Source: Candidatus Poribacteria bacterium (GTDB lineage: Bacteria > Poribacteria > WGA-4E > WGA-3G). From it: a DNA stretch of 64,000 bases. The first letter of the stretch is position 1. Every line of letters begins with the position of its first letter. Position numbers and translations under genes: made by a program. Where the stretch lies: positions 1,560-65,559 of the forward strand of contig JAJDTM010000002.1 in the NCBI GenBank assembly GCA_022827185.1. Direction: 5' to 3'. Shown here one piece after another: positions 42,591 through 58,316 of this stretch. The notes under the pieces are model-generated. The model was not told where the DNA came from. It did no database searches and saw nothing but the letters and a program-made list of their open reading frames with translations.

Positions 42591-43064
42591 TTGCAGGTAC
42601 TTTATTGTCCCATTCCACACGTTACACGAAAACGACAGATAAAAACGGGCAAAATGTTGGGAACTTTGCTTCTCACGTTGTGCATCATGTATGATCATAC
42701 TTGTGGTTTCTCAAAACCCAATGCCAACGTGCTGTTTGTTTTCTCCAAATTTCTTTAGTATATTCCTATAATTACTCCCGTCTCTCAAAAAAATCCTTTC
42801 AAAAGTGTCCAAACGTCTTTCAGGGACATCCATTGTGTGTTTCCCTCCGTAATCGGGGTTTATCCTGCGTTCAGAACCCGATACTCGCAGAACAACTTCT
42901 AAAAATCCTGATTTTTTTGTTATTTTTTTCAAATGATGTGAGTTTTCCGTCCAAAACTTCGTCTTTAATAATAGAAGGTATGAACCGTATCGCCCTACGT
43001 AGTTTTACAAGACCCGGCATCTGATTAAGCCTTTCGGCGGATACGGACACGCCCCAACTGTTTA

Positions 43065-45602
43065 TTGGAAGGACACCTCGTGGAAAAAGAAAATGATGTT
43101 CAACTGATTCAAAGAATATTATCAGGCGATGAAGCAGCGTTTGATGTCTTGGTCCAAAGGCACCAGAAGAGTGTGCACGCCTTGGCGTGGCGGAAGATCG
43201 GCGATTTCCATGATGCTGAGGAGATTACACAGGACACATTCTTTCAGGTATACAAAAAACTCCCGACACTCACGGACCCTTATAAATTCGCTGGATGGCT
43301 GTATGTCATCACAAATCGGCTTTGTATTGATCGGATGCGGCAGAAAAATCTTACGATACAATCGTTGGAGGACACACCTGTGGAAGAAGTTGAAAAATCT
43401 TCTTATACCCATCACGTATCGGAACAACGGCATACAGAAATCACCGAGCGTCGCCGTGCTATCGTCAAAAAACTTCTTGAAAAACTCCCAGAGAGTGAAC
43501 GGACAGTTATGATCCTCCATTATCTCGGCGAAATGACGGTGAAAGAGATTAGCAAGTTCCTGGGTGTCTCTGCAAACGCAATTCATAACCGGTTGTATCG
43601 GGCACGAAAGCGGTTACAAGAGGAAGAAGCATTCCTTATTCAAGAAGTTCTCAGCAGCGTGCAAATACCAACGAGTGTAGGTCAAAACATTATGCAGCGG
43701 GTCGCTGACATAAAACTCACGCCGCAAACAACGCCAAAACCCGTTATTCCGTGGATCGCTTTCGGTACCGCTTTCCTTCTGCTCGCCTTACTCTTTGGCA
43801 CGAGCAATCAATACCTCACCCGTTTTCAGAGACCCTATAGTTTCGAGGCGGCATCTGAACCGACCATTGCTATCATTGACGCACCCGTCGTTCTTGAGAC
43901 AGACGCGAAACCCGCACTGCGAAGTCAAGTTGGACAGGATACCGCCTTAAATCAAAGAACTGGTGCAGGCTTACATGGATCTGAAACTGTCTCAACAACC
44001 GAGTTACCGATGCAGTCAGAAAATATTGAGGCATGGATGCCAGATGAAAATCTACGTCGGGCTATCAAATCTGAACTCAAACTTGGCGATATTCCGCTCG
44101 AGATAGCACATCTCCAGCAGCTCGAACGGTTACTCAGTATTGATGGCGGCATAGAAAGTATTGTGGGTTTAGAACACGCTGTTAATCTTAAATTTCTACA
44201 TCTTGCGCCCAACAAAATCTCGGATCTCACACCACTCGCAAACCTACACAACCTTCGGACACTGAAACTCTATCTCAACAGACTCGTAGACGTTTCACCC
44301 CTTGCGGGATTAGTAGGTTTAGAGACTTTGCATCTACAAAATAACAGGATCGTTGACATCTCACCCCTTGCCGGACTCGTCAACCTAAGGGATTTACAAC
44401 TCAATGGCAATCACATCGAATATTTTTCACCGCTCGCCGGATTAACAAAACTTCAGGTACTTAGGATTAACGACAACAGAGGCATCGATATTTCATCTGT
44501 CCCGACATCCAGTCTGACGGAATTTCTGTATGATCCGACCTTTAATATCCCAGAGATTCCGAACCGTGACCGGATCATGGCTCGCCAGTATCCATCCGTT
44601 TTCGCAGCTTGGCATAACATCATCAATCTACCGACGCTCTCATGGGACGAAAGATTAGTCTATCACGACTTGTGTTTCTCTAATCCTATGTTCGGGCTTC
44701 ATTGGCGGTGGACTCCTACAAGCATGAAAATCTCTGGGAATTTTCGGACAGCAAAGCAACAGCGAGATACGATGCTCAAAGAGAATCCAAATATGATTTT
44801 TCTCGTCGGGATTTATCACTATGGTACACAAGATACATTCGTTCAGCAGGCTGTTGAAGTTGCCAAATGTGGCATCTATGATGGTATCTTTTTAAATTGG
44901 TGGCAAGGCGATAGAGTTGATGCGAAAGTTGCTATACTGCAGAAAATTCGTGAAGTGGTTAGAGATGATTTTCTCATTATCGTCAACGGACTTCGCTCTA
45001 AAACTCCACACTTAGCTCCGTATGTCAACGGCATATTCATGAAAACGAGACGGTACCATCCACAGGGTTACATCCATACCGAACTTCAAGAGATTGAAAG
45101 TGCTTTGCTATGGTCAGAGAAGAATCTTCGATCTCCACAGATTAATTCCTTAGAGGGTTGGGGGCTCGCTGAAGAACCTCTGGATGCCCCACTTAACCAG
45201 CAATGGATGCGGGTCTTTACAACCTTGAGTTTAACGCATTCTGACGGCTATGTTTCGTATGTAACGGGGATTTCATCGTTAACCCACACACATCATTATC
45301 CCATTTGGGAAGGACATTCCGACGAACACGCACAAGGAAAACTACACGATCATACGCATCAGCACTACTGGTATGATTTCTGGGACGCCGATCTCGGTGA
45401 GCCAGTAGGTGGAAAAGGACAGTTCTACCGCGGTTGCGCTGGATTATTCATCCGCGAGTTTACCAACGGATGGGTCGTCTATAACCGCAGTGGAGAAGCA
45501 CAGCAGATCCAGTTGCCGAGGCAAGCCACCAGTGTCGCGAGCGGTATCACCAGCACATCACACACTGTCCCTGATTTAGACGGTGAGATCTTTGTAAAAT
45601 AG
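43065..45602 (+). CDS. Single-chain fusion: ECF sigma factor, one TM helix, LRR region and a roughly 300-aa conserved extracytoplasmic domain (domain X)
   Basis: Sigma-70 region 2 (DAEEITQDTFFQVYKKL) and region 4 (ERTVMILHYLGEMTVKEISKFLGVSANAIHNRLYRARKRL). TM helix VIPWIAFGTAFLLLALLFGT. LRRs of the 22-aa LxxLxLxxNxIxDIxPLAGL type. The C-terminal domain is homologous to those in 46676..47878 and 48186..50744. Likely start is GTG 43080. Confidence 0.75.
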   Translation: MEGHLVEKENDVQLIQRILSGDEAAFDVLVQRHQKSVHALAWRKIGDFHDAEEITQDTFFQVYKKLPTLTDPYKFAGWLYVITNRLCIDRMRQKNLTIQSLEDTPVEEVEKSSYTHHVSEQRHTEITERRRAIVKKLLEKLPESERTVMILHYLGEMTVKEISKFLGVSANAIHNRLYRARKRLQEEEAFLIQEVLSSVQIPTSVGQNIMQRVADIKLTPQTTPKPVIPWIAFGTAFLLLALLFGTSNQYLTRFQRPYSFEAASEPTIAIIDAPVVLETDAKPALRSQVGQDTALNQRTGAGLHGSETVSTTELPMQSENIEAWMPDENLRRAIKSELKLGDIPLEIAHLQQLERLLSIDGGIESIVGLEHAVNLKFLHLAPNKISDLTPLANLHNLRTLKLYLNRLVDVSPLAGLVGLETLHLQNNRIVDISPLAGLVNLRDLQLNGNHIEYFSPLAGLTKLQVLRINDNRGIDISSVPTSSLTEFLYDPTFNIPEIPNRDRIMARQYPSVFAAWHNIINLPTLSWDERLVYHDLCFSNPMFGLHWRWTPTSMKISGNFRTAKQQRDTMLKENPNMIFLVGIYHYGTQDTFVQQAVEVAKCGIYDGIFLNWWQGDRVDAKVAILQKIREVVRDDFLIIVNGLRSKTPHLAPYVNGIFMKTRRYHPQGYIHTELQEIESALLWSEKNLRSPQINSLEGWGLAEEPLDAPLNQQWMRVFTTLSLTHSDGYVSYVTGISSLTHTHHYPIWEGHSDEHAQGKLHDHTHQHYWYDFWDADLGEPVGGKGQFYRGCAGLFIREFTNGWVVYNRSGEAQQIQLPRQATSVASGITSTSHTVPDLDGEIFVK

Positions 45603-45611
45603 GCACATCGC

Positions 45612-45665
45612 CTGCGGATGTCAACGGCGATGGTGTTGATCCGTGACCTCGTCGCCATCGAAAAT
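45612..45665 (+). pseudogene. Frame-shifted dockerin remnant just 3' of the ECF-fusion stop
   Basis: gatgtcaacggcgatggtgtt encodes DVNGDGV, then a frame break, then DLVAIENN. This resembles the [20 protein letters not shown] dockerin repeats of neighbouring genes. Confidence 0.5.
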
Positions 45666-45721
45666 AATTTGGCGGAGAGACAAGCCAATTCTTACTACTT
45701 ATATGGAGAAGAATATGCCTT

Positions 45722-46567
45722 ATGAAAATTAATGGATTCATATCTACAATTATATTGACCGCATTGCTACTGATTGCCACACTCGGAGGCATCACACACG
45801 CCCAAGACGAAGAAGACTGGCTGCCGGATCCGAACCTCCGGCAGGCTATCCGTGAAGCACTCGATATCCCTGATGAGATACCGATACATCCTGGAGACAT
45901 GGAAGGATTACATGGCCTTCGCTTAATAGAAATAGAACACGATATTAGGAGTTTAAGAGGACTTGAGTATGCCGTGAATCTTAAATTCTTGGTTATCGAC
46001 AGAAGTCAACTCTCAAATTTAACGCCACTGGCGGGGCTTAAGAACTTAGAATTTTTGGTTATTGTTAGAAGTGAAATCTCAGATTTAACGCCCCTTACGG
46101 GACTCAAGAATTTACGGGACTTAAAGTTGCGTGAGAATCGCATCACGGATATTACACCCCTTGCAGGATTGGTAAACTTAGAGTTGCTGGTATTGACCCG
46201 GAATCAAATTGTGGATATAACACCGCTCGCAGGATTGATAAACCTACGACGCTTACAATTGAATCATAACCAGGTAGAAGATATTTCACCACTTCGTAGG
46301 TTGGTGAACCTACAACACTTGCAATTGCAACATAACCAGATCGTAGACATTTCACCGCTTCGCGGGTTGTTATCCCTCAAAGTGTTGAACCTCGGAGACA
46401 ATCCTATTACAGACCTTACACCCATTTACGGACTTGTCGGGATAGAAGCATTAGAGATCCAAGAGATACCTATTGACTTTGAAGAACTTCAGATACTGAA
46501 TCCAGTAGACCGTGTTGTTTGCAATATAGAAAGATCCCCCATACTGCCTCGGATTGAAAACATTTAG
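45722..46567 (+). CDS. Secreted LRR protein, the N-terminal part of a gene interrupted by an in-frame TAG
   Basis: Signal peptide. LRRs homologous to the LRR block of the 43065 fusion. The ORF ends at TAG 46565-46567, and the same frame continues into the next ORF. Confidence 0.6.
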   Translation: MKINGFISTIILTALLLIATLGGITHAQDEEDWLPDPNLRQAIREALDIPDEIPIHPGDMEGLHGLRLIEIEHDIRSLRGLEYAVNLKFLVIDRSQLSNLTPLAGLKNLEFLVIVRSEISDLTPLTGLKNLRDLKLRENRITDITPLAGLVNLELLVLTRNQIVDITPLAGLINLRRLQLNHNQVEDISPLRRLVNLQHLQLQHNQIVDISPLRGLLSLKVLNLGDNPITDLTPIYGLVGIEALEIQEIPIDFEELQILNPVDRVVCNIERSPILPRIENI

Positions 46568-46675
46568 TATCCGTCTATTTTTCAAGCGTGTGGGCTTATT
46601 GTCAACCGTCCGGAACTCTCGTGGGTAGAGCAATTAGCATCCCACGATCTGTTTTTCTGCCGTGGGGAGTTCGGA

Positions 46676-47878
46676 GTGGATTGGATTCAAGCACCAGATC
46701 GCCTGGTTCTCACACTCAGTGAGGCCAAAGTGCGCGCAAAAGAAGGACGCGATCGGAATCCAAATATACTTCTCCTTGCCAGCATAGAATTTTATGGGGC
46801 ATCCCCAGAATCGCCTTATGCACTCAGAGATGAATCGGGAAATGTAATAATAGATCACAAATGGGATGGTGCTTTCGCGGACTTCAGGCATCCTGATATT
46901 CAAAAGAGGTTTATAGAGAAGGCACACGCGATTGCGCGATGCGGGCTTTTTGATGGAATCGCCATAGATCATTGGGGGAAACCTGGACTTGGAGATATGA
47001 CCTTAGAAGAAACTGTTGCCGCAAAAGATCGCATGATACAGGCCATTCGTGATGGTGTCGATGATGATTTCTTGATACTGGTAACGACGACGAACGAGAT
47101 TATTCCGACACAGCATCATGCGGAATATATCAATGGCTTTTTCATGGAAACTATTGAAGGTTATGAGGGCGGTTATACCTACGCAGGACTCGCTCACATC
47201 GAAAACACGCTGCTGTGGGCAGAAAAAAACCTCCGAGAGCCTCAAATAAACTGTTTGGCAGGTAGGGGCGTTAGGAGCGAACTGCTGGATAGTCCGAGAA
47301 ATCTACAATGGATGCGTCTATGGACGACAATGAGTCTGACACATTCTGATGGCTATGTCATGTTTACCATGGGTGGCAACCTTGACCATCCCGCCCACCC
47401 TTTTGAATTTTTGCCAGGTCATGCGGATTGGCATGCACAAGGCAAGCGTCACACTCACCAAAACAGCCACTACTGGTATGATTTCTGGGATGCTCCGCTG
47501 GGTCGTCCGATCGGTGGTGATGAAACCAAAGCACAGTTTTATGAGGATCGCGAGGGGTTGTTTATCCGAGAATTTACTAACGGCTGGGCGGTGTATAATC
47601 GCTCCGGCTCCGAACAACAGATTGAGTTTTCGGAAGAAGTCTCCGGCTGGGACAGTGGGGTGGCGCATCAACGCCAGCATACGTTGGCGGATTTGGATGG
47701 CGAGATTTATTTGAAAGCGGAAACCCCTCCCATTGCGGATGTCAATGGTGACGGGACGGTGAATGTCTTGGATCTGGTTATCGTCGCGAATGCGTTTGGG
47801 GAAGCAGCACCGGATTTGAATGGTGACGGGACGGTGAATGTGTTAGACCTTGTGCTGGTGGCGAATGCGTTTGAGTAG
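46676..47878 (+). CDS. Domain X plus a double-repeat type I dockerin (3' part of the split gene)
   Basis: Homologous to the C-terminal domain of the 43065 and 48186 proteins. Ends [46 protein letters not shown]. Confidence 0.6.
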
Positions 47879-48185
47879 GAAACACGCCAAGTTTTTCGCA
47901 GAAATGACCGATTTTCACTGAAAAATGGTGTTCGTGCGTCTAAAATCACATAGGTAGCAAGTTAGGTTATTCTAAAATGTCGAAACACTTGACGAAACTC
48001 AAGAGACTTGAAAAATATCAGCATTAGAATATTCCTTAAATGCTTCTGCTTAACGATTGCAGAAACCTCGCCCTTTAGGGCGGGGTCTATCACGACTTCA
48101 TTATACCAAAAGGGTTCTGTTTATACAAAAAGTTACGCGATTATTTATCAGAGTCACGTTATACAAACGAATGAGGTAAATCCCT

Positions 48186-50744
48186 ATGAAAATCAAGCCC
48201 TCTTTTTACTACAGTTTCCACCTTCTTTTTCTGATTCTCTATCTCAGTCTTACCCCTGTGCACGCCCAAGACTGGCTCCCTGACCCGGTGTTACGGAAAA
48301 CGATTCGGGAATCTCTGGGTCTATCGGCAAACACACCGCTCACAAAAGACTATATGCAACAACTGATACGTCTTGATGGAAATAACAAAGGCATCACGGA
48401 TCTCAGGGGTTTAGAGTTTGCGACGAACCTAAGAATCCTGCACTTGGGAGGTAATGAAAATAATATCACAGATATCAGTCCGCTTGCCAACTTAACAAAT
48501 CTTGTAGGGCTTCATATCTGGCGTGTTCGGCGTCACGACACGCATCGGGCACCCCTCGACATCCGTCCGCTCGCCAACCTCGTTAACTTAGAGGTGCTCT
48601 CTCTGGAGCGACAGGGACTTTCGGATATAAGCGTGCTTGCGAACCTGACAAAGCTTCATAAGTTAGCACTGACGCACAACAACATCTTGGACTTTAGCCC
48701 GTTAGCAGGATTGACGCATCTGCGGATATTGTGGATAAAAAACAACTGGGGGACGGATTTGAGTCCGCTCAAAGGGTTGAATATTACAGATTTTCGCTAT
48801 GACGAAGTGTGTGATTTCACATCACAAGGGGAGTCCGTCACTGCGCGTGTTGAGAACAGGACGTTTCCGTCGATAGTCGGGCTATTCCCGAAAGGGTCAA
48901 TAGAGGAGATGACCCGGTATGATTTCCATTATGGCACCCATTTCGGATTGTGGTGGAAGCGAACGGAAACCGAGCCGACACACGGCTTAGCGATTCGACG
49001 TTCAGGGGATATGGCGCAGGCGAGAGCGTACCGCCAACAGATGCTCCAACAGAATCCAAACATGTTGTTTTTTGTGGGGGTACCTTTGCTTAATTACAAA
49101 CCTTCCAATGCGGCAACGGCTTTTCCCGCAGATTCTGATTTTTGGCTGCGAGATCGCCAAGGGAATATCATCCAAAATGAGAATGATGCGTGGCTGCTGA
49201 ACATTTTGAACCCAGCGTTACAGGATGTTCAGATTGAAAGAATTGTAGGTTTTGCAAAGTGTGGGATTTTCGATGGTGCGCTGTTAGAAGGATTTACAAA
49301 TCATGGAATTGGTGCTGTGGGCAGCCAGTTTTACCCAGTCGTAACAGATGTGCCGTTAACGGAGGAAGCGATTATTGAGGCGTATCTCCGAATTCTAAGC
49401 GAGGTCCGCGCCCGCGTTCCTGAGGACTTTTTGATCGTCGTCAATGCTACGAGAACCAGACCGACCCGTTATGCGGCATACATCAATGGTAATGTGATGG
49501 AACCGGGTTGGGATTATTCCTACAAAGGACTTGCCGAGATTGAAAGCACTTTACTTTGGTCTGAGGAACATTTCCGGGAACCGCAACTGAATTGGGCACA
49601 AGGGTTTCTTATCACCTCGGAGCCCCCGGAGAGTCCTGGGAACCGTCAACGAATGCGTCTCTTTACAACGATGGGACTCACGCACTCTGATGGCTACATA
49701 AACGTCCATTATCATTCAGCGAAGTGGCAGCGATGGGGAGACATCGCTGAAAATTACTGGTATGACTTCTATGATGCCGACCTCGGCAAGCCGATTGGCA
49801 AAACAGCGCAACGCTGCGACGACTGCGACGGGCTCTTCGTGCGTGAGTTCACCAACGGTTGGGCGGTCTACAACCGGAGCGGCAAAGCACAGACGATCCA
49901 CTTACCCGTCAAAGCCACGGGTGTCGCAAGTGGTATCACAAACACCGAACACATCGTTCCAGATTTAGATGGCGAGATGTATCTGAAACAGGCACCGAGT
50001 GTGAATAGCATCGGCATTGTCACTGTGGTTGAGGTTGCGACCGGTGCGCCAGAGGAACCGGAATCCGAATGGATGCCGGATGCCGCCTTACGCGCAGTAG
50101 TTCGGAAGGAAATGGGACTCCCAACACATATCGCTTTGGAAAAATCCCGCATGCCACAGCTGATACATGTTGATGGAAATAACAAAGGCATCACAGACCT
50201 GACGGGTTTGGAGTTTGCGACGAACCTAAGAATCCTGCACGTCGGGGGGAATAAGAATCAGATAACCGACCTTCGCCCGCTTGCGAACTTGACGATCCTT
50301 GAGCATCTCTATATCTGGCGCACACCTCCAAAAGACCCCGCTTCGGTGAGAGTTCTTGACATCCGTCCGCTCGCCAAGCTCACCAACTTACATGCACTCT
50401 CACTGGCGGGAAACGGGATTACCGATATAGCCCTACTGGCGGGCATGAAGAAGCTCGTCAAACTCATCCTTACAGATAATCGGATTGAAGACTTTAGTCC
50501 GCTGGCTGGGCTGATGAGTTTACGAACGTTGAGGATTCGGAACAACCCCGCCACAGATTTCAGCCCACTTGCCGCTTTACCCCTTATTGAATTTCAACTT
50601 GATGCCGATGTCAACGCCGATGGCTTTGTGAATGTGCTTGACCTCGTTACCGTCGCGAATGCGTTTGGGGAAGCGGCACCCGATCTCAACGGTGATGGCA
50701 TCGTCAATATTCAAGATTTAATTATTGTCGCGAATGCGTTTTGA
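48186..50744 (+). CDS. Secreted protein: LRR, domain X, LRR and a C-terminal dockerin
   Basis: Signal peptide LFLILYLSLTPVHAQD. Two LRR blocks. Domain X motifs ([47 protein letters not shown]). Dockerin [45 protein letters not shown]. Confidence 0.75.
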   Translation: MKIKPSFYYSFHLLFLILYLSLTPVHAQDWLPDPVLRKTIRESLGLSANTPLTKDYMQQLIRLDGNNKGITDLRGLEFATNLRILHLGGNENNITDISPLANLTNLVGLHIWRVRRHDTHRAPLDIRPLANLVNLEVLSLERQGLSDISVLANLTKLHKLALTHNNILDFSPLAGLTHLRILWIKNNWGTDLSPLKGLNITDFRYDEVCDFTSQGESVTARVENRTFPSIVGLFPKGSIEEMTRYDFHYGTHFGLWWKRTETEPTHGLAIRRSGDMAQARAYRQQMLQQNPNMLFFVGVPLLNYKPSNAATAFPADSDFWLRDRQGNIIQNENDAWLLNILNPALQDVQIERIVGFAKCGIFDGALLEGFTNHGIGAVGSQFYPVVTDVPLTEEAIIEAYLRILSEVRARVPEDFLIVVNATRTRPTRYAAYINGNVMEPGWDYSYKGLAEIESTLLWSEEHFREPQLNWAQGFLITSEPPESPGNRQRMRLFTTMGLTHSDGYINVHYHSAKWQRWGDIAENYWYDFYDADLGKPIGKTAQRCDDCDGLFVREFTNGWAVYNRSGKAQTIHLPVKATGVASGITNTEHIVPDLDGEMYLKQAPSVNSIGIVTVVEVATGAPEEPESEWMPDAALRAVVRKEMGLPTHIALEKSRMPQLIHVDGNNKGITDLTGLEFATNLRILHVGGNKNQITDLRPLANLTILEHLYIWRTPPKDPASVRVLDIRPLAKLTNLHALSLAGNGITDIALLAGMKKLVKLILTDNRIEDFSPLAGLMSLRTLRIRNNPATDFSPLAALPLIEFQLDADVNADGFVNVLDLVTVANAFGEAAPDLNGDGIVNIQDLIIVANAF

Positions 50745-50965: not shown

Positions 50966-53080
50966 ATGCAACTAACTAAGAAACAAAACATTTTTATTTA
51001 CTTACTCATCTTTTGTGCGACACTATTCTTCGTATTTCCACTGATAACAAGTGCACAAACTGTTAACATTCCTGACGCGAATCTTCGCGAAGCAATCAAT
51101 GAGGCACTCGGTAAAGCATCAAATGCCCAGGTTACATTGAAGGAAATAGTGACGTTAACCCGCCTTACTGCGAATAACAGAGGTATCAGCGATTTAACAG
51201 GACTTGAAGTTGCGACAGGATTGGAGAGCGTAGAACTCCAGCATAATCAAATATCCGACTTATCCCCGCTCGCGGGGTTGATGAAACTGCGTGTTATACG
51301 GATGGGCAATAACCTTATATTTGATTTATCCCCGGTCGCAGGTTTAATCAACTTGGCAAGATTAGATATCTGGGAGAATTTGATTTCCGATTTGTCCCCG
51401 GTCGCAGGTTTAACCAACTTACTATCAATAAGTTTCGGGAGTAATTCGGTATTTGACTTATCACCCTTGGCGGGGTTAAGGAAGCTTGAGAGGATAAATA
51501 TGAGCCAAAACCCGCCAGCAGACCTCTCGCCCCTTTCAAAAATAATTGGTTTGACAGGTTTTCATTCTTGGGGCACCCCTATATTAGACCTCGCGCCTTT
51601 GGCGGAATTACCAAAACTCAGCGTCATAGATATCTGCGGGGGCGAGATATCGGACCTCTCCGCTTTAGCGAACGCGACAGGTTTGAAGGAACTGTATTTT
51701 GCTGGCAATCAGATCACGGACGTATCGCCGTTGGTGGGCTTAACAAATTTGACGAGACTGAATTTTGCAGAAAATGAAATATCGGACGTGTCACCACTTG
51801 CTGGATTAACCAACTTGACATGGATACGGATTAACCACAATCCAATATCCGATCTATCGCCTTTAGAAGGGTTAGGTATACCTATTGTTCACCATAATAC
51901 CCCGGCATTTCCACCGGGCGGTCCGAAAATCGAAGGACCATGGTTATGGGTACTTGTACCGGGGGAGCGTATTGGTGGTGGAGATTTGCTGGCAGAAGCG
52001 ACGGGTGGCACAGCGACAGAGGAGAAGGTTGCTACTGTTGGTGCTGCAGAGGGAAAGTCTGTTGGAGACAATGTTTGGGTAGCCGATAACATTACCGCGG
52101 TGGGACGCAATAACATCGGTGAAATGCTGAAACGCCAAGGCGTGGGAAACGACGGAGTCGTCTACGGTTCCACCACCTTGGAGTCACCACGAGAACAGGA
52201 AACAAAAATGTTCGTCGGCGCGCATGATGGTGTTGAAGTCTGGCTCAACGGGGCACTCATTCACCAGAAATCTGGTGGACATTGGGCGGAGGGTTACCAC
52301 ACCTTTTTTCCCGTTACGCTCAACGAAGGAACAAATGTGTTGTTAGTTGCTCTTGACAACCACCACGTTGATCAGTGGCGGGCATTTTTTGGATTTGACG
52401 TTGACACAGAATATACGGTAAATTCTCCGATTTCCCGAGCTCCATCTGAAATACCTGCTTATGATGTCAATGAGGATGGGCAAATCAGTATTCTGGATCT
52501 GATTCTGGTAGGTCAAGACTTGGGAAAAGCAAAGCCCACCAACGCGCGAACAGATGTGAATGGCGATGGAACTGTTAGTATCTCGGACCTCGTCCTTGTG
52601 GCACAACATCTCGGCGAAATAACAGGAATTCCTGCCTCGCCTTCCCCCTACACCTTACGCAGCATGGGGTTAGACGCGGCAACAGTCCACACGTGGATAG
52701 CACTTGCCGAGATAGAAAATGATGGCTCGCTCGTCTTCAAGCAAGCGATAGCGAATCTTCAACGGCTTTTAGCGTTGTTGATGCCCGAAAGGACAGCATT
52801 GCTTGTGAACTATCCGAATCCGTTTAACCCAGAGACATGGATACCCTACCAACTTGCTGAACCTGCCAAGGTCACTATACACATTTATGCGATGAGCGGT
52901 GCTTTGGTCCGGAAGTTAGATTTAGGACATCAGGCTGCTGGTATCTATAGTGAAAAGAACCGTGCAGCGTATTGGGATGGTCGCAACCAACTTGGAGAAC
53001 CTGTAGCGAGTGGTGTGTATTTCTACACGTTCACTACTGGCGACTTTACGGCGACGCGAAAAATGGTGATAAGGAAGTAG
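50966..53080 (+). CDS. Secreted protein: LRR, a roughly 180-aa unknown domain (domain Y), a dockerin and a T9SS-type C-terminal sorting domain
   Basis: Signal peptide. About 12 LRRs. Domain Y (GPWLWVLVPG...KSVGDNVW...SPREQETKMF). Dockerin DVNEDGQISILDL...[41 protein letters not shown]...VYFYTFTTGDFTATRKMVIRK. Confidence 0.75.
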   Translation: MQLTKKQNIFIYLLIFCATLFFVFPLITSAQTVNIPDANLREAINEALGKASNAQVTLKEIVTLTRLTANNRGISDLTGLEVATGLESVELQHNQISDLSPLAGLMKLRVIRMGNNLIFDLSPVAGLINLARLDIWENLISDLSPVAGLTNLLSISFGSNSVFDLSPLAGLRKLERINMSQNPPADLSPLSKIIGLTGFHSWGTPILDLAPLAELPKLSVIDICGGEISDLSALANATGLKELYFAGNQITDVSPLVGLTNLTRLNFAENEISDVSPLAGLTNLTWIRINHNPISDLSPLEGLGIPIVHHNTPAFPPGGPKIEGPWLWVLVPGERIGGGDLLAEATGGTATEEKVATVGAAEGKSVGDNVWVADNITAVGRNNIGEMLKRQGVGNDGVVYGSTTLESPREQETKMFVGAHDGVEVWLNGALIHQKSGGHWAEGYHTFFPVTLNEGTNVLLVALDNHHVDQWRAFFGFDVDTEYTVNSPISRAPSEIPAYDVNEDGQISILDLILVGQDLGKAKPTNARTDVNGDGTVSISDLVLVAQHLGEITGIPASPSPYTLRSMGLDAATVHTWIALAEIENDGSLVFKQAIANLQRLLALLMPERTALLVNYPNPFNPETWIPYQLAEPAKVTIHIYAMSGALVRKLDLGHQAAGIYSEKNRAAYWDGRNQLGEPVASGVYFYTFTTGDFTATRKMVIRK

Positions 53081-53117
53081 GTTGTCGCACTTTCAACCGA
53101 TAGTTAGGAGATTAACC

Positions 53118-56100
53118 ATGAGAATTAGTAAATACCTTTATCTGACAGTATTAATATTTATCGTATTAGGATTTGGAACCGCATCTGCGCAGCAGGATCT
53201 CGCGCAAGAGGCATACACTATCCTTCAAAAGAATTGTTCGCTATGTCATGGAGAACACGGCTCCTTTACCGAGGATTTGGTGCTTGAATACACATCACTC
53301 ATCGGGAATGGGGTTATTGTCCCTGGAAATCCTAATGCTTCGGAGTTCTATAAACGATTAATTGAGAATACACCCGAAAAACCGCGAATGCCGTGGGGAC
53401 AGCCTGCGTTGTCAGCGGATGCGCTTGAGACGATTCGTCAGTGGATTGCAGCGGGTGCACCGAATTGGGAGGTGCAATATGATGTCAACTTCATTACGAT
53501 GGATGCGATGCTTTCGGTGATTGAAGATCACGTCGCGTCGCTTTCGGCATTTGATCGTCCGTCCGCTCGCTACTTCACGCTGACGCATCTCTATAACGCT
53601 GGTGGAAGTCCTGAGGCACTTGATGCCTATCGGCGTGCACTCTCGAAGTTGGTGAATAGTCTCTCCTGGGGGTTTGAAGTGATCAAGCCAGAACCGATTG
53701 ACGAACAAGAGATGATCTTTTATATTGATTTGCGCCACTATGAGTGGGATAGAAACGAAGCGTGGACGCAGATTGAACGGGAATATCCCTACAGCATTGA
53801 ATTTGATTCGGAGACACAAGCGGGTCTGCACGAAAAACTGACGAATTTACGTACAGAAATGGACTGCGAAGTGCCGTTTGTCTATGTGGATTGGTTCCTT
53901 GCTAATGCGTCGTTACCACCGCTGTACCACGATATTCTGGACCTGCCAGAAACGGATCAGGAATTAGAGGAGCAACTGGGAGTCAATGTGACGCGAAATA
54001 TCAACAATGCTCCCGGGGTTCACGTCTGGCGTGCGGGTTTCCTCAAGTCGGGTGTGTCAGGGTACAACCGTGTTGTGGAACGGCACACCTCCGACTATGG
54101 TGCGTATTGGAAAAGCTACGACTTTGCGGGGGATTCGGACGTTCAGAATATTTTTATACATCCGCTGACTTTTAGACACGACGGTGGGGAGGTCGTGTTC
54201 CATCTGCCGAACGGTTTGCAAGGGTATTATATCTCTGATGCGTCTGGGAATCGGATAAATGAGGCACCAACGACGATCGTATCCAACCCAGCGGCAAGCA
54301 ATCCTGCCGTGCGCAATGGTCTCTCTTGTATCGGTTGCCACACAGAAGGCATGAAAACGTTTGAAGATGAGGTGCGTGCGGAGATTATGCTGCGGTTCCC
54401 TGAGGGACCGGTGAAGGATCAGGGATTGCGTCTGTATGTGGAACAATCAAAGATGGATGCGCTTGTGGCGAGGGACACAGCTCGTTACAGGGGAGCACTT
54501 GAAAAGACGGGTGGTGTGTTTGGTGGTACGGTTGAACCGGTACATCGGTTCTATGAGGAGTTTCAACGTCCTGTTGAGGCTGCACACGCTGCGGCTGCTG
54601 TCGGTTTAGAGACAGAGATGTTCCGTCAAGAGATTCGAGATAAACAGCGTTTACGGGACTTAGGTTTGGCGGGGCTATTGGAGGATAGGGGTGTGAGTCG
54701 GGATACATGGACCTCCAACTTTCCCGAAGTGATTTCGGCGCTGCATTCTCCCGACGATACAACAACACAGCCGGTCGATCCAGAAACTGACCTACGTCCT
54801 GGTGATTTAGTCTCTATTCCTGATCCGAACCTTCGTGCTGTGATAGAAAGGTTGCTCGACAAAGCCCCAGGTGCTTTGATTACGGCGGCGGATATGGCAA
54901 GGTTGACGCGGATTGTTGCCGATGATGCTGGGATTAGTAATTTGACGGGACTTGAGGCGGCAACGCAGTTGGAACGCATAGAATTTCGTCGGAATTCGAT
55001 ATCCGATTTATCTCCACTGAGAGGCTTAATCCGACTCAATAACATCAAGCTCCGGGGGAATCGGATAACCGATGTATCACCGCTTGCTGACTTAGTTCGT
55101 GTGGATTGGTTAGGACTTGAGGATAACGAGATAACAGATTTATCTCCGCTGAAGGGATTAACCAGATTAAACGGGATAGGGATTTCAGGCAACCCAATAT
55201 CCGATGTATCACCGCTTGCAAACTTGACCAGTTTAGAAGGCATCAACGCTTGGCGCACACCTATCTCGGATTTCTCATCCTTGGCAAAATTAACGAGATT
55301 CAGGTGGATAGGATTTGGTGATGATAAGTCGATATCAGCACTTCCATCACTGAAGGGATTGAAAAGTTTGAGACGGTTGGAAATTAACAACTGTAGCATC
55401 TCGGATCTCTCCGGATTGGCGGAATTGACACAGTTGGAATGGTTAGGATTGAATAATAACCAGATATCGGATATATCTCCATTGCGAAATTTAAGGGGTT
55501 TAGAACATCTGAATCTTAATGCTAACATTATCGAAGATGTATCGCCGCTTGCGAAGTTAACAAAGTTAAAACTTCTACATCTTGTGAACAACATTATCTC
55601 GGATGTATCGCCGCTTGCAGGATTAACTAACTTGGAACGGTTAGACCTCCGCAACAATGCGATATCTGACTTTTCACCTTTGGAAGGATTATTGGAGGAG
55701 ACATTTGTCAGAATAGAAGGTAACACGGGTGTTCTCCGGCGAGGAGCTCCAAAGATACAAGGGCCATGGTTGTGGGTGCTCGTGCCTGTGCCCGGGTCTG
55801 ATGCCTTCCGTAACATAGATTTGCTTGCACGAGCAAGTAATGGAGATATAACCGAGCGGGAGATCGCTACAAACGGTGCGACAGAAGGGAAGTCTGTCGG
55901 TGATAACGTCTGGTTTTCCGAGAAAATATCTACGGATAGGAACAACATCAGAACCATGCTGGGTGCCCTCGGTATGTTAGAAGAGGGCAGTCGCTCGAAT
56001 CTCGTCTACGGTTCGCTCACCCTTGATTCACCACGAGAACAACAGACAAAGATGTTTGCTGGGAGCGATGATCTGCATAAAGTCTGGTTCAATGGACAGT

Positions 56101-57755
56101 TGGTTAGCGAAGCTGTCCACGGAGGGACAAGTGGTGATTACCAGGAATCTTTCCGTGTTACGTTGAAGCAAGGAAAAAATGTGTTATTAGTTGCAATATA
56201 TGATTATGGGGGTGGATGGGGAGGACATTTTGGGTTTGCGCCTGATGCTGAATATACGGTCTTATCCCCTGACACCAGATTCTCCTTTTCCACAGCGGCG
56301 ACGCGAATTAAAGTTGGCGATAGGTTCACTGTTCAGTTCAAAACAAAAAACATTTCCGACTTAGCGGGATGGCGATCTGATATTACATTTGATCCCGCAG
56401 TGCTAAAAGTCAATAACGTCCGCGAGGGTAGTTTCCTGAAACAAGGTGGTGGACGCACCCACTTCTTGAAAGGCACGATTGATAATACGATGGGTAGAAT
56501 CGCCGATGTCGGTTCTGCACGGATCTCTGAAGGTGGAGTTAGCGGTGAAGGTGCCCTGTTGTCAATTACATTCACGGCAAAGGTGAATGGTGAGAGCCGA
56601 TTGTCACTACGAAAATTTCAAGCTGGTTCCAGTACGGGTGATGCAATTTCTGATCGACCCCCTGATATGATTATTACTGTCGAGGATCCGTCGTCCTTAG
56701 ATGTAAGTGATGGCCCATTTTCCCTTTCTACGGATGTAACACCTGTTCGCCTTGGTAATACCTTTAACCTTCTTCTCAAAGCGGAAGATGTTACGGATTT
56801 AGCGGGATGGCAGACTGATATTGCGTTTGACCCCGATGTGCTTGAAACCGTTGAGGTGAACGAAGGCGATTTTCTGAAGGCGGAAGGCGGGGATACCTTC
56901 TTTTTTCAAGGCGCGATTGATAACACGGCAGGTAAAATTACAGGTCTCAGCGCAGCGAAGTTGAAGGGCGGTGGTAACGGCGCAGGTATGCTACTATTGG
57001 TTACATTCAAGGCGAAGGCTGTCGGGGAAACACGGGTGACACTTAGCAATTTCTTTGCTGGCTCCAGCAGCGGCGAAACTATCTCTTCAGAAGTTCCCGA
57101 AATTAGGATCACTATTGAGGATCGCGCGTTTTCTGCTTCGGATGTCAATCAGGACGGTCGAGTGAACGTTCAGGATCTAATCGTGGTTGCACAACATTTA
57201 GGTGCTGATGCGTCTGTCAACCGCCGAGCGGATGTCAATGGCGATGGAACTATTAACGTTTTGGACATCATCGTTATCGCACAAAATTTAGGTGAATCAA
57301 CAGCGGCTGCGCCTTCCAATGTTGCTGCTATAGACAGTTTAGAATTATATCCAGCAATGGTTCAGGCATGGATAGCGGAGGCAGAGGCTAAGAATGACGA
57401 TTCGATTGCCTTCCGACAGGGTATCGAAAACCTTCAACGACTTTTAGCGTCGCTGCTTCCTGAAAAGACAGTGTTGCTGCCGAACTATCCGAACCCGTTC
57501 AATCCCGAAACATGGATACCCTATCATCTTGCTGAAGCTGCGGATGTGACAGTGCATATCTATGCTACCGATGGGGTCTCGGTTCGGACGTTGGCGTTAG
57601 GGCATCAGGCTGCTGGCACCTATGAGCGTCGTAGCCGTGCGGTGTATTGGGACGGCAAAAACGAGGTCGGTGAGCCTGTCGCGAGTGGTGTCTATTTTTA
57701 TACCCTAACGGCAGGTGATTTCACTGCTACGCGGAAACTGTTGATACGGAAATAG
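53118..57755 (+). CDS. Giant secreted scaffold-like protein: PSCyt1-like CxxCH domain, a second CxxCH, LRR, domain Y, two cohesin-like modules, a dockerin and a T9SS-type CTD
   Basis: ATG 53118 with aggag RBS and signal peptide. CSLCH at about 53235 followed by ...PRMPWGQPALSADALETIRQWIAAGAP, the PSCyt1 pattern. CIGCH at about 54325. LRRs 54820-55700. Domain Y 55740-56280. Cohesin-like beta-sandwich modules at about 56290-56690 and 56700-57120 (DLAGW..DI.FDP.VL). Dockerin at 57130-57300. CTD at 57480-57755. The track ORF starts at TTG 53082, one base after the previous stop. Confidence 0.75.
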   Translation: MRISKYLYLTVLIFIVLGFGTASAQQDLAQEAYTILQKNCSLCHGEHGSFTEDLVLEYTSLIGNGVIVPGNPNASEFYKRLIENTPEKPRMPWGQPALSADALETIRQWIAAGAPNWEVQYDVNFITMDAMLSVIEDHVASLSAFDRPSARYFTLTHLYNAGGSPEALDAYRRALSKLVNSLSWGFEVIKPEPIDEQEMIFYIDLRHYEWDRNEAWTQIEREYPYSIEFDSETQAGLHEKLTNLRTEMDCEVPFVYVDWFLANASLPPLYHDILDLPETDQELEEQLGVNVTRNINNAPGVHVWRAGFLKSGVSGYNRVVERHTSDYGAYWKSYDFAGDSDVQNIFIHPLTFRHDGGEVVFHLPNGLQGYYISDASGNRINEAPTTIVSNPAASNPAVRNGLSCIGCHTEGMKTFEDEVRAEIMLRFPEGPVKDQGLRLYVEQSKMDALVARDTARYRGALEKTGGVFGGTVEPVHRFYEEFQRPVEAAHAAAAVGLETEMFRQEIRDKQRLRDLGLAGLLEDRGVSRDTWTSNFPEVISALHSPDDTTTQPVDPETDLRPGDLVSIPDPNLRAVIERLLDKAPGALITAADMARLTRIVADDAGISNLTGLEAATQLERIEFRRNSISDLSPLRGLIRLNNIKLRGNRITDVSPLADLVRVDWLGLEDNEITDLSPLKGLTRLNGIGISGNPISDVSPLANLTSLEGINAWRTPISDFSSLAKLTRFRWIGFGDDKSISALPSLKGLKSLRRLEINNCSISDLSGLAELTQLEWLGLNNNQISDISPLRNLRGLEHLNLNANIIEDVSPLAKLTKLKLLHLVNNIISDVSPLAGLTNLERLDLRNNAISDFSPLEGLLEETFVRIEGNTGVLRRGAPKIQGPWLWVLVPVPGSDAFRNIDLLARASNGDITEREIATNGATEGKSVGDNVWFSEKISTDRNNIRTMLGALGMLEEGSRSNLVYGSLTLDSPREQQTKMFAGSDDLHKVWFNGQLVSEAVHGGTSGDYQESFRVTLKQGKNVLLVAIYDYGGGWGGHFGFAPDAEYTVLSPDTRFSFSTAATRIKVGDRFTVQFKTKNISDLAGWRSDITFDPAVLKVNNVREGSFLKQGGGRTHFLKGTIDNTMGRIADVGSARISEGGVSGEGALLSITFTAKVNGESRLSLRKFQAGSSTGDAISDRPPDMIITVEDPSSLDVSDGPFSLSTDVTPVRLGNTFNLLLKAEDVTDLAGWQTDIAFDPDVLETVEVNEGDFLKAEGGDTFFFQGAIDNTAGKITGLSAAKLKGGGNGAGMLLLVTFKAKAVGETRVTLSNFFAGSSSGETISSEVPEIRITIEDRAFSASDVNQDGRVNVQDLIVVAQHLGADASVNRRADVNGDGTINVLDIIVIAQNLGESTAAAPSNVAAIDSLELYPAMVQAWIAEAEAKNDDSIAFRQGIENLQRLLASLLPEKTVLLPNYPNPFNPETWIPYHLAEAADVTVHIYATDGVSVRTLALGHQAAGTYERRSRAVYWDGKNEVGEPVASGVYFYTLTAGDFTATRKLLIRK

Positions 57756-57960: not shown

Positions 57961-58316
57961 CTTCATTATATACAAATTTCATCTCCGATCTTTCCCGTCG
58001 TCAATATTTTGGATCTTATCCTCATTTCATCTTTACCTCGTCCTCATCTCATTCTCATTACTCAACATTTAAGCGGATAAAAATAAAAACGTCTGTAGCG
58101 TTGTGTGCTAACACTTCCAGACTTTATATAATCTGCGGTTTATCAGGTCCCTGAAACCCGACCTGCCTTCGGGATAACTGTTAAAAAAATAGAAATTTTC
58201 ATTTTTTTTCAGATTATGCACGTTTTCCGTTCCCAAATTACGTCTTTAGAAATCAAGCGGTAAAAAAATCATTTTGTTTAACAATTTTCGTTTAATATCT
58301 GAAGGGAGAAAAAAAG

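Follow-up and report, generated by a model that had tools for sequence, protein, structure and literature searches.

A GHL15-type glycoside hydrolase module shared by dockerin proteins and a transmembrane ECF sigma factor in Candidatus Poribacteria

Introduction

For cellulosome genes, it has been reported that xylan is sensed by the GH10 module of RsgI6 (PMC10328401). In the RsgI/SigI systems of Clostridium thermocellum, an extracellular glycoside hydrolase (GH)-type sensor on a transmembrane protein controls an alternative sigma factor of the σI type, and cohesin-dockerin multi-enzyme genes form the controlled set; RsgI has an N-terminal anti-sigma domain and a periplasmic Asn-Pro autocleavage domain. 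Sigma factor and membrane part are joined in IutY (ECF243), SCO4117 (ECF52), ECF48 and ECF53, which consist of sigma regions 2 and 4, a transmembrane (TM) helix and an extracytoplasmic domain; in SCO4117, the latter includes a carbohydrate-binding domain. Regulated proteolysis is the accepted model for this group, and fused sigma/TM proteins (IutY, SCO4117 and ECF48/52/53) are described as activated by proteolysis (PMC8999054). Catalytically dead glycosidase folds are known from chitinase-like lectins and the 4F2hc/CD98 heavy chain, which are eukaryotic, belong to other GH families and are not known to be coupled to a sigma factor.

Among characterised enzymes, the retaining endo-α-1,3-fucanases of family GH168 (Fun168A/D/E, PbFucA, Rho5174, 9nhf) overlap with Pfam GHL15 (PF14885). 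D184 and E254 have been named as catalytic in PbFucA, and the D206E and E264Q mutants of Fun168A are inactive (PMC11685898).

Here, we analysed 64,000 nt of Candidatus Poribacteria DNA (GCA_022827185.1, JAJDTM010000002.1, forward-strand positions 1,560-65,559), referred to as the window. A sequence-only reading of this DNA had proposed that an uncharacterised domain, domain X, was common to a sigma factor fusion and two secreted dockerin proteins.

Results

Organization of the locus

Pfam searches and a hydropathy scan bore out the proposed architectures, with a sigma fusion in gene A and dockerin proteins in genes B and C (Table 1). Three copies of domain X were found as described, all on the + strand, but gene B turned out to be two open reading frames, that is, a single frame split by one TAG; at homologous loci, the corresponding codon is a sense codon (ACG, GAG, GCG or ACA). 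Gene A had at least 120 full-length homologs with 48-92% identity, and the order of sigma regions 2 and 4, TM helix and extracytoplasmic domain in one polypeptide was kept in more than 120 homologs. Further downstream, genes D and E have in common a module of ~190 aa without a family name.

Table 1. Features of the locus. Positions are those of the window.
Feature	Position	Strand	Description	Evidence
Promoter-like element	42942..42967	+	GTTTTCCGT-N9-CGTCTTTA, ~100 nt upstream of gene A	
Gene A	43065..45602	+	845 aa: ECF sigma, TM helix, stalk, LRR, GHL15 domain without catalytic residues	Pfam, NCBIfam
Sigma-70 regions 2 and 4	43149..43622	+	aa 29-95 and aa 133-186	PF04542 E 6e-15, PF08281 E 3e-16, TIGR02937 E 1e-28
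TM helix	43743..43799	+	aa 227-245, VIPWIAFGTAFLLLALLFG	Top 19-residue Kyte-Doolittle window, 2.2
Juxtamembrane stalk	43803..43934	+	aa 247-290, extracytoplasmic, SNQYL.RFQRPYSFEA.SEPTI..LETDAKPA	
Gene A leucine-rich repeats	44022..44504	+	aa ~320-480	PF12799 LRR_4 E 5e-24
Domain X, copy A (putative sensor)	44577..45599	+	aa ~505-845; GHL15-like barrel and β-sandwich, without β3-α3 hairpin	
Asn611 (AAT)	44895..44897	+	Copy A, position of GH168 nucleophile Asp	HMM alignment to PbFucA D184
Lys660 (AAA)	45042..45044	+	Copy A, position of GH168 general acid/base Glu	HMM alignment to PbFucA E254
Gene B	45722..47878	+	Signal peptide, LRR, domain X, dockerin; split by in-frame TAG	
Gene B, first part	45722..46564	+	Signal peptide and LRR; N-terminus MKINGFISTIILTALLLIATLGGITHA followed by QD	LRR_4 E 4e-37
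In-frame TAG of gene B	46565..46567	+	One frame runs on at both sides	
Domain X, copy B	46568..47716	+	Asp416/Thr455/Glu476; dyad intact, His-rich loop present	
Gene B dockerin	47738..47875	+		PF00404 E 7e-9
Gene C	48186..50744	+	852 aa: signal peptide, LRR, domain X, LRR, dockerin	
Domain X, copy C	48792..49988	+	aa 203-601; Glu368/Asn420/Glu439	
Gene C dockerin	50607..50738	+		PF00404 E 8e-6
Gene D	50966..53080	+	704 aa: LRR, ~190 aa module, dockerin, FlgD_ig/Por_Secre_tail-like C-terminal domain	Dockerin E 1e-9
Gene E	53082..57755	+	1557 aa, scaffoldin-like: PSCyt1, LRR, gene-D-type module, two cohesins, dockerin, C-terminal sorting-type domain	
Gene E cohesins	second at 56748-57095	+	Two matched stretches	PF00963 Cohesin E 4e-19
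Gene E dockerin	57138-57290	+		PF00404 E 6e-9

Family and fold of domain X

That one domain occurs in all three genes was supported far beyond chance (BLASTP E 6e-76 for A vs C and 1e-99 for A vs B), with 41-49% identity among the copies in a MAFFT alignment. It is 340-400 aa long rather than the roughly 300 aa first suggested, because it also takes in a “YPS(V/I)F” segment at the N-terminus and a β-sandwich at the C-terminus. Each of the six sequence motifs quoted for the domain was recovered, but in the form given they match either two or all three copies: KCGI(Y/F)DG and LWSE(K/E) match A and C (the former being RCGLFDG in B), (Y/F)(V/I)NG.(F/V)ME and L(F/W)TT..LTHSDGY match B and C (in A, YVNGIFMK and VFTT...), and YWYDF(W/Y)DA.LG.P(V/I)G and GLF(I/V)REFTNGW(A/V)VYNRSG are matched by A, B and C alike.

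The sequence-only reading could name no known family for the domain; this was wrong, as copy C matched Pfam GHL15 (PF14885), a family that has received little study, at 52 bits (E 1e-13), compared with a gathering cut-off of 27 bits for the whole-protein score. Copy B scored just below the cut-off (26.3-26.7 bits), and copy A, whose match was limited to its C-terminal end, missed it as a single sequence (15-16 bits). Because copy A falls under the Pfam threshold, the sensor architecture is invisible to routine pipelines. Precomputed PF14885 matches were found for nearly all of the 120 secreted homologs listed and for about half of the sigma-fused ones. No NCBIfam model and no non-enzymatic family matched domain X, and thousands of homologs exist in other genomes, which speaks against an artefact. 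In Candidatus Poribacteria, domain X is a large paralogous family. Public databases leave most of its members unnamed and label a few as “hypothetical”, “LRR domain-containing” or “putative glycoside hydrolase”.

The GH-like barrel that had been offered as speculation was also found: AF2 models of the family fold (pLDDT 89 and 87) contained a (β/α)8 barrel and, after it, a small β-sandwich subdomain, as in GH168. A family profile built from domain-trimmed sequences and compared with PDB/GH168 matched PbFucA (E 1.4e-12), 9nhf (E 1e-8) and Fun168E (E 3e-5) with 13-17% identity, and a single-sequence search of PDB gave marginal GH168 matches (E 2e-3). With the untrimmed alignment, whose profile was dominated by the LRRs of the homologs, the search had found nothing but internalins and other LRR proteins, and this alignment was discarded. 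Domain X is a GHL15-type glycoside hydrolase module, and its nearest characterised relatives are the GH168 fucanases; a sister family or a remote subfamily would be in keeping with these values.

Catalytic residues

Profile alignment placed the family motifs “DGxxL-D” and “NGxxM-E” on D184 and E254 of PbFucA, respectively. The conserved columns of the family hold the GH168 catalytic Asp (end of β4), the −1-subsite Asn (β5) and the Glu (end of β6). Spacing from Asp to Asn is 46 residues in both GH168 and the domain X family, and the mapped Asp and Glu come directly after strands 162-165 and 233-236 of the AF2 model, as they do in GH168. The equivalent of WfGH168_II N218 is kept in 99% of secreted copies. 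Of the WfGH168_II −1-subsite set (Y99, N101, N218, W332), Y99 and N101 differ, being aligned with Glu and Arg of the family consensus “ExRxHNH” (Gly/Pro and Ser/Glu in copies C and B).

With regard to the three local copies, copy A has Asn/Asn/Lys at the three positions and is missing the β3-α3 hairpin, where conservation with GH168 is otherwise strongest; this loss may have changed or abolished glycan binding. In the closest homologs of gene A (P0121), Glu is still found at the Lys660 position. The TAG-interrupted copy B has Asp/Thr/Glu, with Thr instead of Asn and a D416/E476 dyad that matches GH168. Copy C has Glu/Asn/Glu (E368/E439), in which Glu takes the place of the nucleophile Asp. The canonical enzyme is absent from the window; therefore, the picture of a sensor plus active enzymes rests on the family, not on the locus.

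Within the family, comparison of putative catalytic residues between secreted and sensor copies, a check proposed with the sequence-only reading, revealed that they are selectively lost from sigma-fused copies and kept by the secreted family. The D..E pair was kept by 114 of 122 secreted vs 8 of 121 sigma-fused homologs in a first set. An independent set from species-representative Candidatus Poribacteria genomes gave a similar result, with the Asp…Glu dyad in 86/90 non-sigma vs 5/39 sigma-fused copies (Fisher p 2e-21; the counts of either set are phylogenetically non-independent). All three residues, Asp, Asn and Glu, were present in 78 of the 90 non-sigma copies at 40-60% overall divergence, and the five sigma-fused exceptions retained Asp/Asn/Glu or Asp…Glu. 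Nearly all other columns with at least 90% conservation were unchanged among sigma-fused copies, which also retained the hairpin in 29 of 39 cases and the acid/base Glu in 71%. In place of the Asp, at least five other residues were seen (N, G, S, R, E), differing by clade, and at least 11 parsimony changes were counted for the nucleophile column on a rough NJ tree without support values. On sequence grounds, loss of the nucleophile with the barrel kept points to a lectin-like pseudo-glycosidase more than to a spacer. The His-rich loop was considered as a hallmark of sensor copies and rejected, as it was also seen in 47 of the 90 non-sigma copies. Similarly, an origin of the sigma fusions in assembly or gene-calling artefacts was rejected, since at least 39 dereplicated loci were found, several of them on complete chromosomes.

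Sigma module, stalk and promoter-like element

The sigma module of gene A is of the ECF type and lacks region 3. Its stalk, which had no Pfam match and may be a processing site, is nearly invariant among the sigma-fused family. A second sigma fusion was found in the window (61227-63419); it has another sensor, and its sigma module and stalk (first ~300 aa) are 58% identical to those of gene A. Between region 4 and the TM helix lies a linker of about 40 residues (aa 187-226) with the highly conserved LLVQEVLGGVQIS..QNIMR.VADI, in which we found no Cys/His motif, Pfam match or recognisable anti-sigma (ASD/ZAS) domain, although it may hold a minimal helical element. An Asn-Pro autocleavage motif was absent from aa 246-330 of gene A, and no protease gene was found. 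Because an anti-sigma domain, an Asn-Pro motif and a protease gene were all not found, proteolytic release would be proposed by analogy only.

The promoter-like pattern upstream of gene A occurred twice in the window (the second time at 58222-58248) vs 0 expected from 100 shuffles, and was kept upstream of sigma-fusion genes at loci L001, L002 and L004 and partly at L005. This suggests that it is a candidate ECF-type autoregulated promoter. With up to three mismatches allowed, no such element was seen upstream of genes B, C or D, so the regulon proposed below follows from gene order. A generic scan for sigma-70 promoters and terminators performed no better than on shuffled sequence; given these results of the promoter searches, operon structure is likewise a prediction.

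Gene neighbourhood and the cohesin-dockerin system

The gene neighbourhood of sigma fusions is conserved. When the count was restricted to fusions with 3 kb or more of sequence downstream, same-strand GHL15, dockerin or cohesin genes followed in 35 of 36 genomes; among the 36 fusions, 25 had a downstream GHL15 gene, 33 a dockerin gene and 23 a cohesin gene. Delivery of domain X by dockerins, as first suggested, was supported at the level of domain matches: the dockerins are genuine, the two-cohesin protein of gene E is encoded downstream, and type I dockerins on the putative enzymes together with cohesins on a scaffold protein are predicted to assemble. The window also contained glycogen, hexuronate and xylose-isomerase-like TIM-barrel genes; sulfatase and fucose-utilisation genes were sought in it and not found. 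Literature searches combining Poribacteria with dockerin/cohesin or with sigma factor/LRR returned no description of such a system.

Discussion

The explanation that we favor, and that we consider reasonably probable, is that gene A encodes a one-protein transmembrane ECF sigma factor with a dead paralog of the neighbouring enzymes as its glycan sensor. The idea that domain X is sensed by the sigma fusion needs correction in this respect: the sigma protein does not sense domain X and carries its own copy as its extracellular part. The free copies (signal peptide, LRR, domain X, dockerin) would most likely be secreted endo-glycanases of putative activity and would attach through their dockerins to the LRR protein with cohesins whose gene follows immediately downstream. 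The dead domain of gene A may bind the polysaccharide substrate of these enzymes, or oligosaccharides released from it, and the binding signal would travel via the conserved stalk and the TM helix. The sigma domain would then be freed, probably by regulated proteolysis, and could drive its own promoter as well as the downstream dockerin and cohesin genes. A more general proposal, which we advance tentatively and with slightly more doubt than belief, is that Poribacteria possess a modular family of one-protein transmembrane ECF sigma factors that have a conserved chassis (sigma domain, TM helix and stalk) in common and acquire sensors by duplication of neighbouring secreted proteins. In this view, the GHL15 duplicate would have been inactivated repeatedly and independently through nucleophile loss, and the resulting sigma factors would control a cohesin-dockerin system.

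Two alternatives concern the free copies. In a narrower version of the favored explanation, they would be true GH168-type endo-α-1,3-fucanases, and the locus would sense and degrade sulfated (fucoidan-like) fucan from algae, echinoderms or sponge matrix. We regard this as rather unlikely. Tyr99 and Asn101 of the GH168 −1 subsite help hold 2-O-sulfated fucose, and because the family consensus has Glu and Arg opposite these β3 residues, and identity to GH168 is as low as given above, the substrate may not be fucan. Besides, hexuronate and glycogen genes adjoin the locus, no sulfatase lies within the window, and the literature search found no paper linking Poribacteria and GH168. It might also be argued that the family is non-enzymatic and serves adhesion or host interaction (LRR “eukaryote-like” proteins) on a glycosidase scaffold, differences among copies being drift. 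Its proteins bear LRRs and occur in large numbers in a sponge symbiont, the activities of members are putative, and copies B and C deviate at catalytic or −1-subsite positions; however, conservation of the triad and dyad in non-sigma copies would be difficult to account for unless catalysis were under selection, and the contrast with sigma-fused copies indicates that catalytic columns can change once the context changes. Such a role appears very improbable to us.

Other alternatives accept the enzymes and differ on gene A. Its copy of the domain could be a protein-interaction module reporting that LRR-GHL15 paralogs or the cohesin scaffold are present or assembled, or a ligand-free structural spacer. 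This would agree with an ectodomain (LRR and domain X) that equals the copy of a secreted protein minus the dockerin, with LRRs being typical protein-binding modules, with the absence from copy A of a hairpin that lines the cleft in its relatives, and with the dockerin present on two sigma-fused homologs (P0126 and P0149). Yet most sigma-fused copies keep the hairpin and the acid/base Glu, the nucleophile is specifically lost while the conserved residues elsewhere in the barrel are almost all retained, and RsgI6 provides a precedent for a GH module as glycan sensor, all of which make this reading unlikely in our opinion. As for release, the sigma domain might act while tethered to the membrane, like ToxR/CadC, or the ~40 aa linker might be a minimal built-in anti-sigma element whose conformation is altered by ligand; we give these two versions together only a small chance. 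Absence of an anti-sigma domain, zinc-finger and Asn-Pro motif between region 4 and stalk would suit them, as would the highly conserved linker, but proteolysis has been proposed or shown for every characterised TM-extended ECF sigma factor reviewed (PMC8999054), and a stalk common to fusions with different sensors fits a common site of processing or transduction.

If the favored explanation holds, the locus resembles RsgI/SigI in having an extracellular GH-type sensor on a transmembrane protein that controls an alternative sigma factor and, judging here from gene order, cohesin-dockerin multi-enzyme genes. It differs in that a single polypeptide comprises the sensor and a sigma factor of the ECF type instead of σI, the RsgI anti-sigma and Asn-Pro autocleavage domains are absent, and the putative sensor is a nucleophile-less paralog of the adjacent enzymes in a different, uncultivated phylum. 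With the IutY/SCO4117 group it shares the order of sigma regions 2 and 4, TM helix and extracytoplasmic domain; unlike that group, gene A has no recognisable ZAS/anti-sigma domain, its ectodomain consists of LRR and a pseudo-glycosidase, and its stalk is common to poribacterial fusions with different sensors. Compared with GH168, the poribacterial proteins are distant (13-17% identity), have the β3 Tyr-x-Asn of the −1 subsite replaced, have an activity that is putative, and add LRRs at the N-terminus, a dockerin and, in many cases, a His-rich loop; one of their lineages is sigma-fused and catalytically dead.

These observations provide a name and a testable catalytic dyad for a domain that thousands of poribacterial proteins contain. 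Its connection with the recently characterised fold of GH168 fucanases is relevant to the handling of sulfated or other matrix glycans by sponge symbionts. The sigma-fused copies also offer a clean natural experiment in pseudoenzyme evolution, in which residues are kept when the domain is secreted and the nucleophile is lost in various ways when it is fused to a sigma factor. The compact design of sensor and sigma factor in one protein could be turned into an engineered switch that responds to glycans. The locus points to a cohesin-dockerin system with a dedicated sensor outside Firmicutes. If true, this would mean cohesin-dockerin control in a non-Firmicute, uncultivated sponge symbiont, and “enzyme-turned-receptor” sigma factors that are convergent with clostridial RsgI/SigI control of cellulosomes and built from different parts.

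Domain X is a GHL15-type glycosidase-like domain

Three consecutive genes on the forward strand of the window (genes A, B and C, see table) carry copies A, B and C of one domain, domain X. That a single domain is common to the three was confirmed by alignment (41–49% identity across 340–400 aligned residues) and by BLASTP (copy A vs C, E 6e-76; A vs B, E 1e-99). The length of about 300 aa given in the sequence-only reading is too short for this span; its six motifs were all found, but as literal patterns each matched just two or three copies. Calling the domain uncharacterised was also an overstatement, because it belongs to an existing Pfam family whose structural relatives have recently been characterised. 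Against Pfam GHL15 (PF14885, “hypothetical glycosyl hydrolase family 15”; cut-off 27 bits), copy C scored 52 bits, copy B slightly less than the cut-off and copy A far less. GHL1–GHL15 date from 2011, when they were defined by computation as likely glycosidases with a TIM barrel (PMC5765458). A search of ~5.8 billion proteins gave 2123 homologs; the best 120 of these were nearly all LRR-GHL15-dockerin proteins of ~650 aa, and the named proteins among them were from Candidatus Poribacteria. The AlphaFold2 model of copy C (pLDDT 89, pTM 0.89; 50 homologs as input) is a (β/α)8 barrel with a C-terminal β-sandwich, and a Foldseek match to the GH168 enzyme PbFucA (E 3e-15) agrees with this fold. A profile of domain-trimmed family members likewise matched PbFucA (E 1.4e-12), 9nhf (1e-8) and Fun168E (3e-5).

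Gene B, previously read as one dockerin gene, does have a single frame and the full architecture, but a single in-frame TAG cuts the otherwise intact signal peptide-LRR-GHL15-dockerin gene. Related loci have sense codons (ACG, GAG, GCG, ACA) at this position. The TAG may have arisen by nonsense mutation not long ago, may be an error of sequencing or may allow read-through.

Features of the locus and other features of the window
Feature	Position	Strand	Description
Gene A	43065-45602	+	845 aa; sigma-70 regions 2 and 4 (ECF type), TM helix, LRR, C-terminal domain X
Gene A hydrophobic helix	aa 227-245		one, strongly hydrophobic
Gene B (read through)	45722-47878	+	signal peptide, LRR, domain X, dockerin
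Gene B as listed	45722-46567; 46676-47878	+	two ORFs, one reading frame
Gene B TAG	46565-46567	+	in frame
Gene C	48186-50744	+	852 aa; signal peptide, LRR, domain X, second LRR block, dockerin
Gene D	50966-53080	+	directly downstream of gene C; LRR, module without Pfam family, dockerin, sorting-type C-terminal domain
Gene E	53082-57755	+	1557 aa, scaffoldin-like
Module of genes D and E	51866-52520; 55662-56330		~190 aa, without Pfam family
Copy A residues			nucleophile Asn611 (AAT), −1 Asn641, acid/base Lys660 (AAA)
Copy B residues			nucleophile Asp416, −1 position Thr455, acid/base Glu476
Copy C residues	49287-49289 (Glu368 codon)		nucleophile position Glu368 (GAA), −1 Asn420, acid/base Glu439
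His-rich loop	45330-45440; 47390-47510		gene A (aa ~735-766); gene B
Promoter-like element	42942-42967; 58222-58248		26 nt; GTTTTCCGT-N9/10-CGTCTTTA
ORF	58317-58880		187 aa; Gly-rich hydrophobic “GAISFG”-type repeats, no Pfam match
Secreted M16_C-like protein	59091-61160		689 aa
Second TM ECF sigma fusion	61227-63419		730 aa; ectodomain Peptidase_M16_C-like (“inactive domain”) module
Cadherin-domain protein	1-5145		>1713 aa, extends past window start
Hexuronate catabolism genes	6061-8769; 30552-31517		altronate/galactarate dehydratase, UxuA; upstream of locus
PD-(D/E)XK transposase-like gene	35388-36161		

Catalytic residues are selectively lost in sigma-fused copies

GH168 enzymes are retaining glycosidases with a nucleophile Asp and an acid/base Glu (the dyad), which are D206/E264 in Fun168A, D184/E254 in PbFucA and D172/E243 in WfGH168_II (PMC11685898; PMC12534559). 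In a HMMER alignment of the family profile with PbFucA, the Asp of the motif CG(L/I)(F/Y)DGxxL-D aligned with D184 and the Glu of Y(V/I)NGxxM-E with E254 (chain positions 146 and 216, offset 38). The Asn of DDFLIxVN aligned with the GH168 −1-subsite Asn, the Asp-to-Asn spacing being 46 residues in both. In the model, the mapped residues sit right after β-strands 162–165, 214–218 and 233–236, as they do in GH168. The β3-α3 hairpin, the best-conserved stretch between the family and GH168, is also missing from copy A. Based on this hairpin loss and the residues at the mapped positions (see table), none of the three copies is a canonical enzyme. The part of gene B located 3' of the TAG retains the dyad. 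Copy C, a “secreted enzyme”, may itself be impaired, because the equivalent Fun168A mutant, D206E, showed no activity, as did E264Q (PMC11685898). The family residue at this position is Asp (GAT), which is also present in the closest ortholog of copy C (locus L009 of another genome); among the matches listed, only the homolog P0001 shared the Glu.

Gene A had at least 120 full-length homologs from Poribacteria (48–92% identity, 99% coverage). When retrieved homologs of A and C were all aligned to one HMM, the dyad was kept in 114 of 122 secreted and 8 of 121 sigma-fused homologs, the lists consisting of the homologs nearest to A and to C and the sequences being related to each other. A second, independent set comprised dereplicated ORFs from 77 loci of species-representative genomes, five earlier loci and the window. 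Here, the comparison of secreted and sensor copies proposed in the sequence-only reading showed the dyad in 86 of the 90 copies lacking a sigma domain (Asp, Asn and Glu together in 78) and in 5 of 39 sigma-fused copies (Fisher exact p = 2e-21; sequences interrelated). In secreted copies, ~95 columns reached 90% conservation or more, and of those located in the C-terminal two thirds the sigma-fused set retained nearly all. The main exceptions were the nucleophile, which was Gly in 57%, the −1 Asn and the acid/base, which were kept in 55% and 71%, respectively, a Tyr close by (mostly Ser; hmm column 225) and columns 199, 281 and 392. On a rough NJ tree without support values, sigma-fused copies formed ~9 clades, each with a nucleophile replacement of its own (Asn, Gly, Ser, Arg, Glu), and the nucleophile column required at least 11 parsimony changes. 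This pattern looks like that of a pseudoenzyme kept for binding, in which the fold is conserved and the catalytic positions are specifically freed from constraint.

Some variants were also observed. Sigma fusions P0126 and P0149, among the matches listed, had an extra C-terminal dockerin beside the ectodomain, and at another locus (L075, 12035-13219) the stalk apparently led directly into domain X without LRR. A His-rich loop of ~41 aa (HxH..GH..H..HxHxH) between SDGYV and YWYDFWDA was seen in 36 of the 39 sigma-fused copies. Of the 90 copies lacking a sigma domain, 47 had this loop, and copy C did not. Model confidence was low in this region, which may be a metal site.

Gene neighbourhood

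Gene E has a Planctomycete cytochrome C-like domain at its N-terminus and, at its C-terminus, a FlgD_ig/Por_Secre_tail-like domain that it shares with gene D; it also carries LRRs, a dockerin and two cohesins (PF00963, E 4e-19). The cadherin-domain protein has the same FlgD_ig domain at its C-terminus. The module shared by D and E (48% identity, E 3e-49; motif PKI(E/Q)GPWLWVLVP...GKSVGDNVW) gave only a faint Pfam hint of a β-galactosidase all-β domain (E 0.02). In all five neighbourhoods of sigma-fused homologs obtained via exact protein look-up, LRR, GHL15, dockerin and/or cohesin genes lay immediately 3' on the same strand; at L001 (59% identity), synteny with the window extended over ten genes. 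In the larger set, 36 sigma fusions had 3 kb or more of sequence downstream, and in 35 of these GHL15 (25), dockerin (33) or cohesin (23) genes followed, most within 500 bp. The family was essentially restricted to Poribacteria. Three contigs from sponge metagenomes labelled Chloroflexota (L027, L030, of 1.9 Mb, and L031) had GHL15 copies without a sigma domain that kept Asp/Asn/Glu (47–48% identity), which could mean that sponge symbionts exchanged the gene by horizontal transfer or that the contigs were wrongly binned or labelled.

Sigma module and proposed mechanism

In gene A, region 4 and the TM helix are separated by ~40 residues, in which no anti-sigma or zinc-finger domain was detectable with Pfam. 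Over the first ~300 residues, which comprise sigma domain, linker, TM helix and an extracytoplasmic stalk of 45 aa, gene A and the second fusion share 58% identity. The second fusion adjoins a secreted protein with the M16_C-like module of its own ectodomain and so, like gene A, has a sensor paralogous to the product of a neighbouring gene. Because the first ~300 residues are similar, the ectodomains differ and each sensor is paralogous to its neighbour, the sequences suggest a common signalling chassis with exchangeable sensors taken from neighbouring genes. In the window, the promoter-like element occurred upstream of the two sigma units only (0 expected by chance); a search upstream of genes B, C and D gave no match. 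It was conserved upstream of sigma-fusion genes at L001 (9864), L002, L004 and, in part, L005, with the consensus TTTTTTC..T.ATG...TTTCC..-N-CGTCTTTAAT in several Poribacteria genomes. Its CGTC box resembles ECF −10 elements, and the element is a candidate ECF autoregulatory promoter. The 187 aa ORF lies just 3' of the second element, upstream of the M16-like gene.

The analysis established the fold and family of domain X, the mapping of its residues, their selective loss and the linkage of the genes; enzyme activity, substrate, ligand binding, proteolysis and regulon we infer as follows. Free copies would be secreted retaining endo-glycanases assembled on the cohesin protein via their dockerins, and the sigma-fused copy an inactive paralog that would bind the same polymer or its fragments. 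The stalk and TM helix would pass on the signal, with regulated proteolysis as the most likely means, and the sigma domain, once released, would switch on the downstream genes as well as its own promoter. Among fused TM sigma factors, regulated proteolysis occurs in IutY and was proposed for SCO4117 and ECF48/52/53 (PMC8999054). GH168 similarity points to sulfated fucan as a substrate; however, this is uncertain because the β3 Tyr-x-Asn of the GH168 −1 subsite is replaced in the family and no sulfatase genes were present in the 64-kb window.

The proposed control logic parallels that of RsgI/SigI in the clostridial cellulosome, where the GH10 module of RsgI6 serves as xylan sensor (PMC10328401). 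However, RsgI/SigI uses σI, two proteins and an Asn-Pro autocleavage domain, whereas gene A encodes one ECF-type protein without such a domain. In the literature searched, we found no description of sigma-fused pseudo-GHL15 sensors and no report of cohesin-dockerin systems in Poribacteria. Domain X itself was already known as a Pfam family; what is new in the system is the way in which it brings known principles together.
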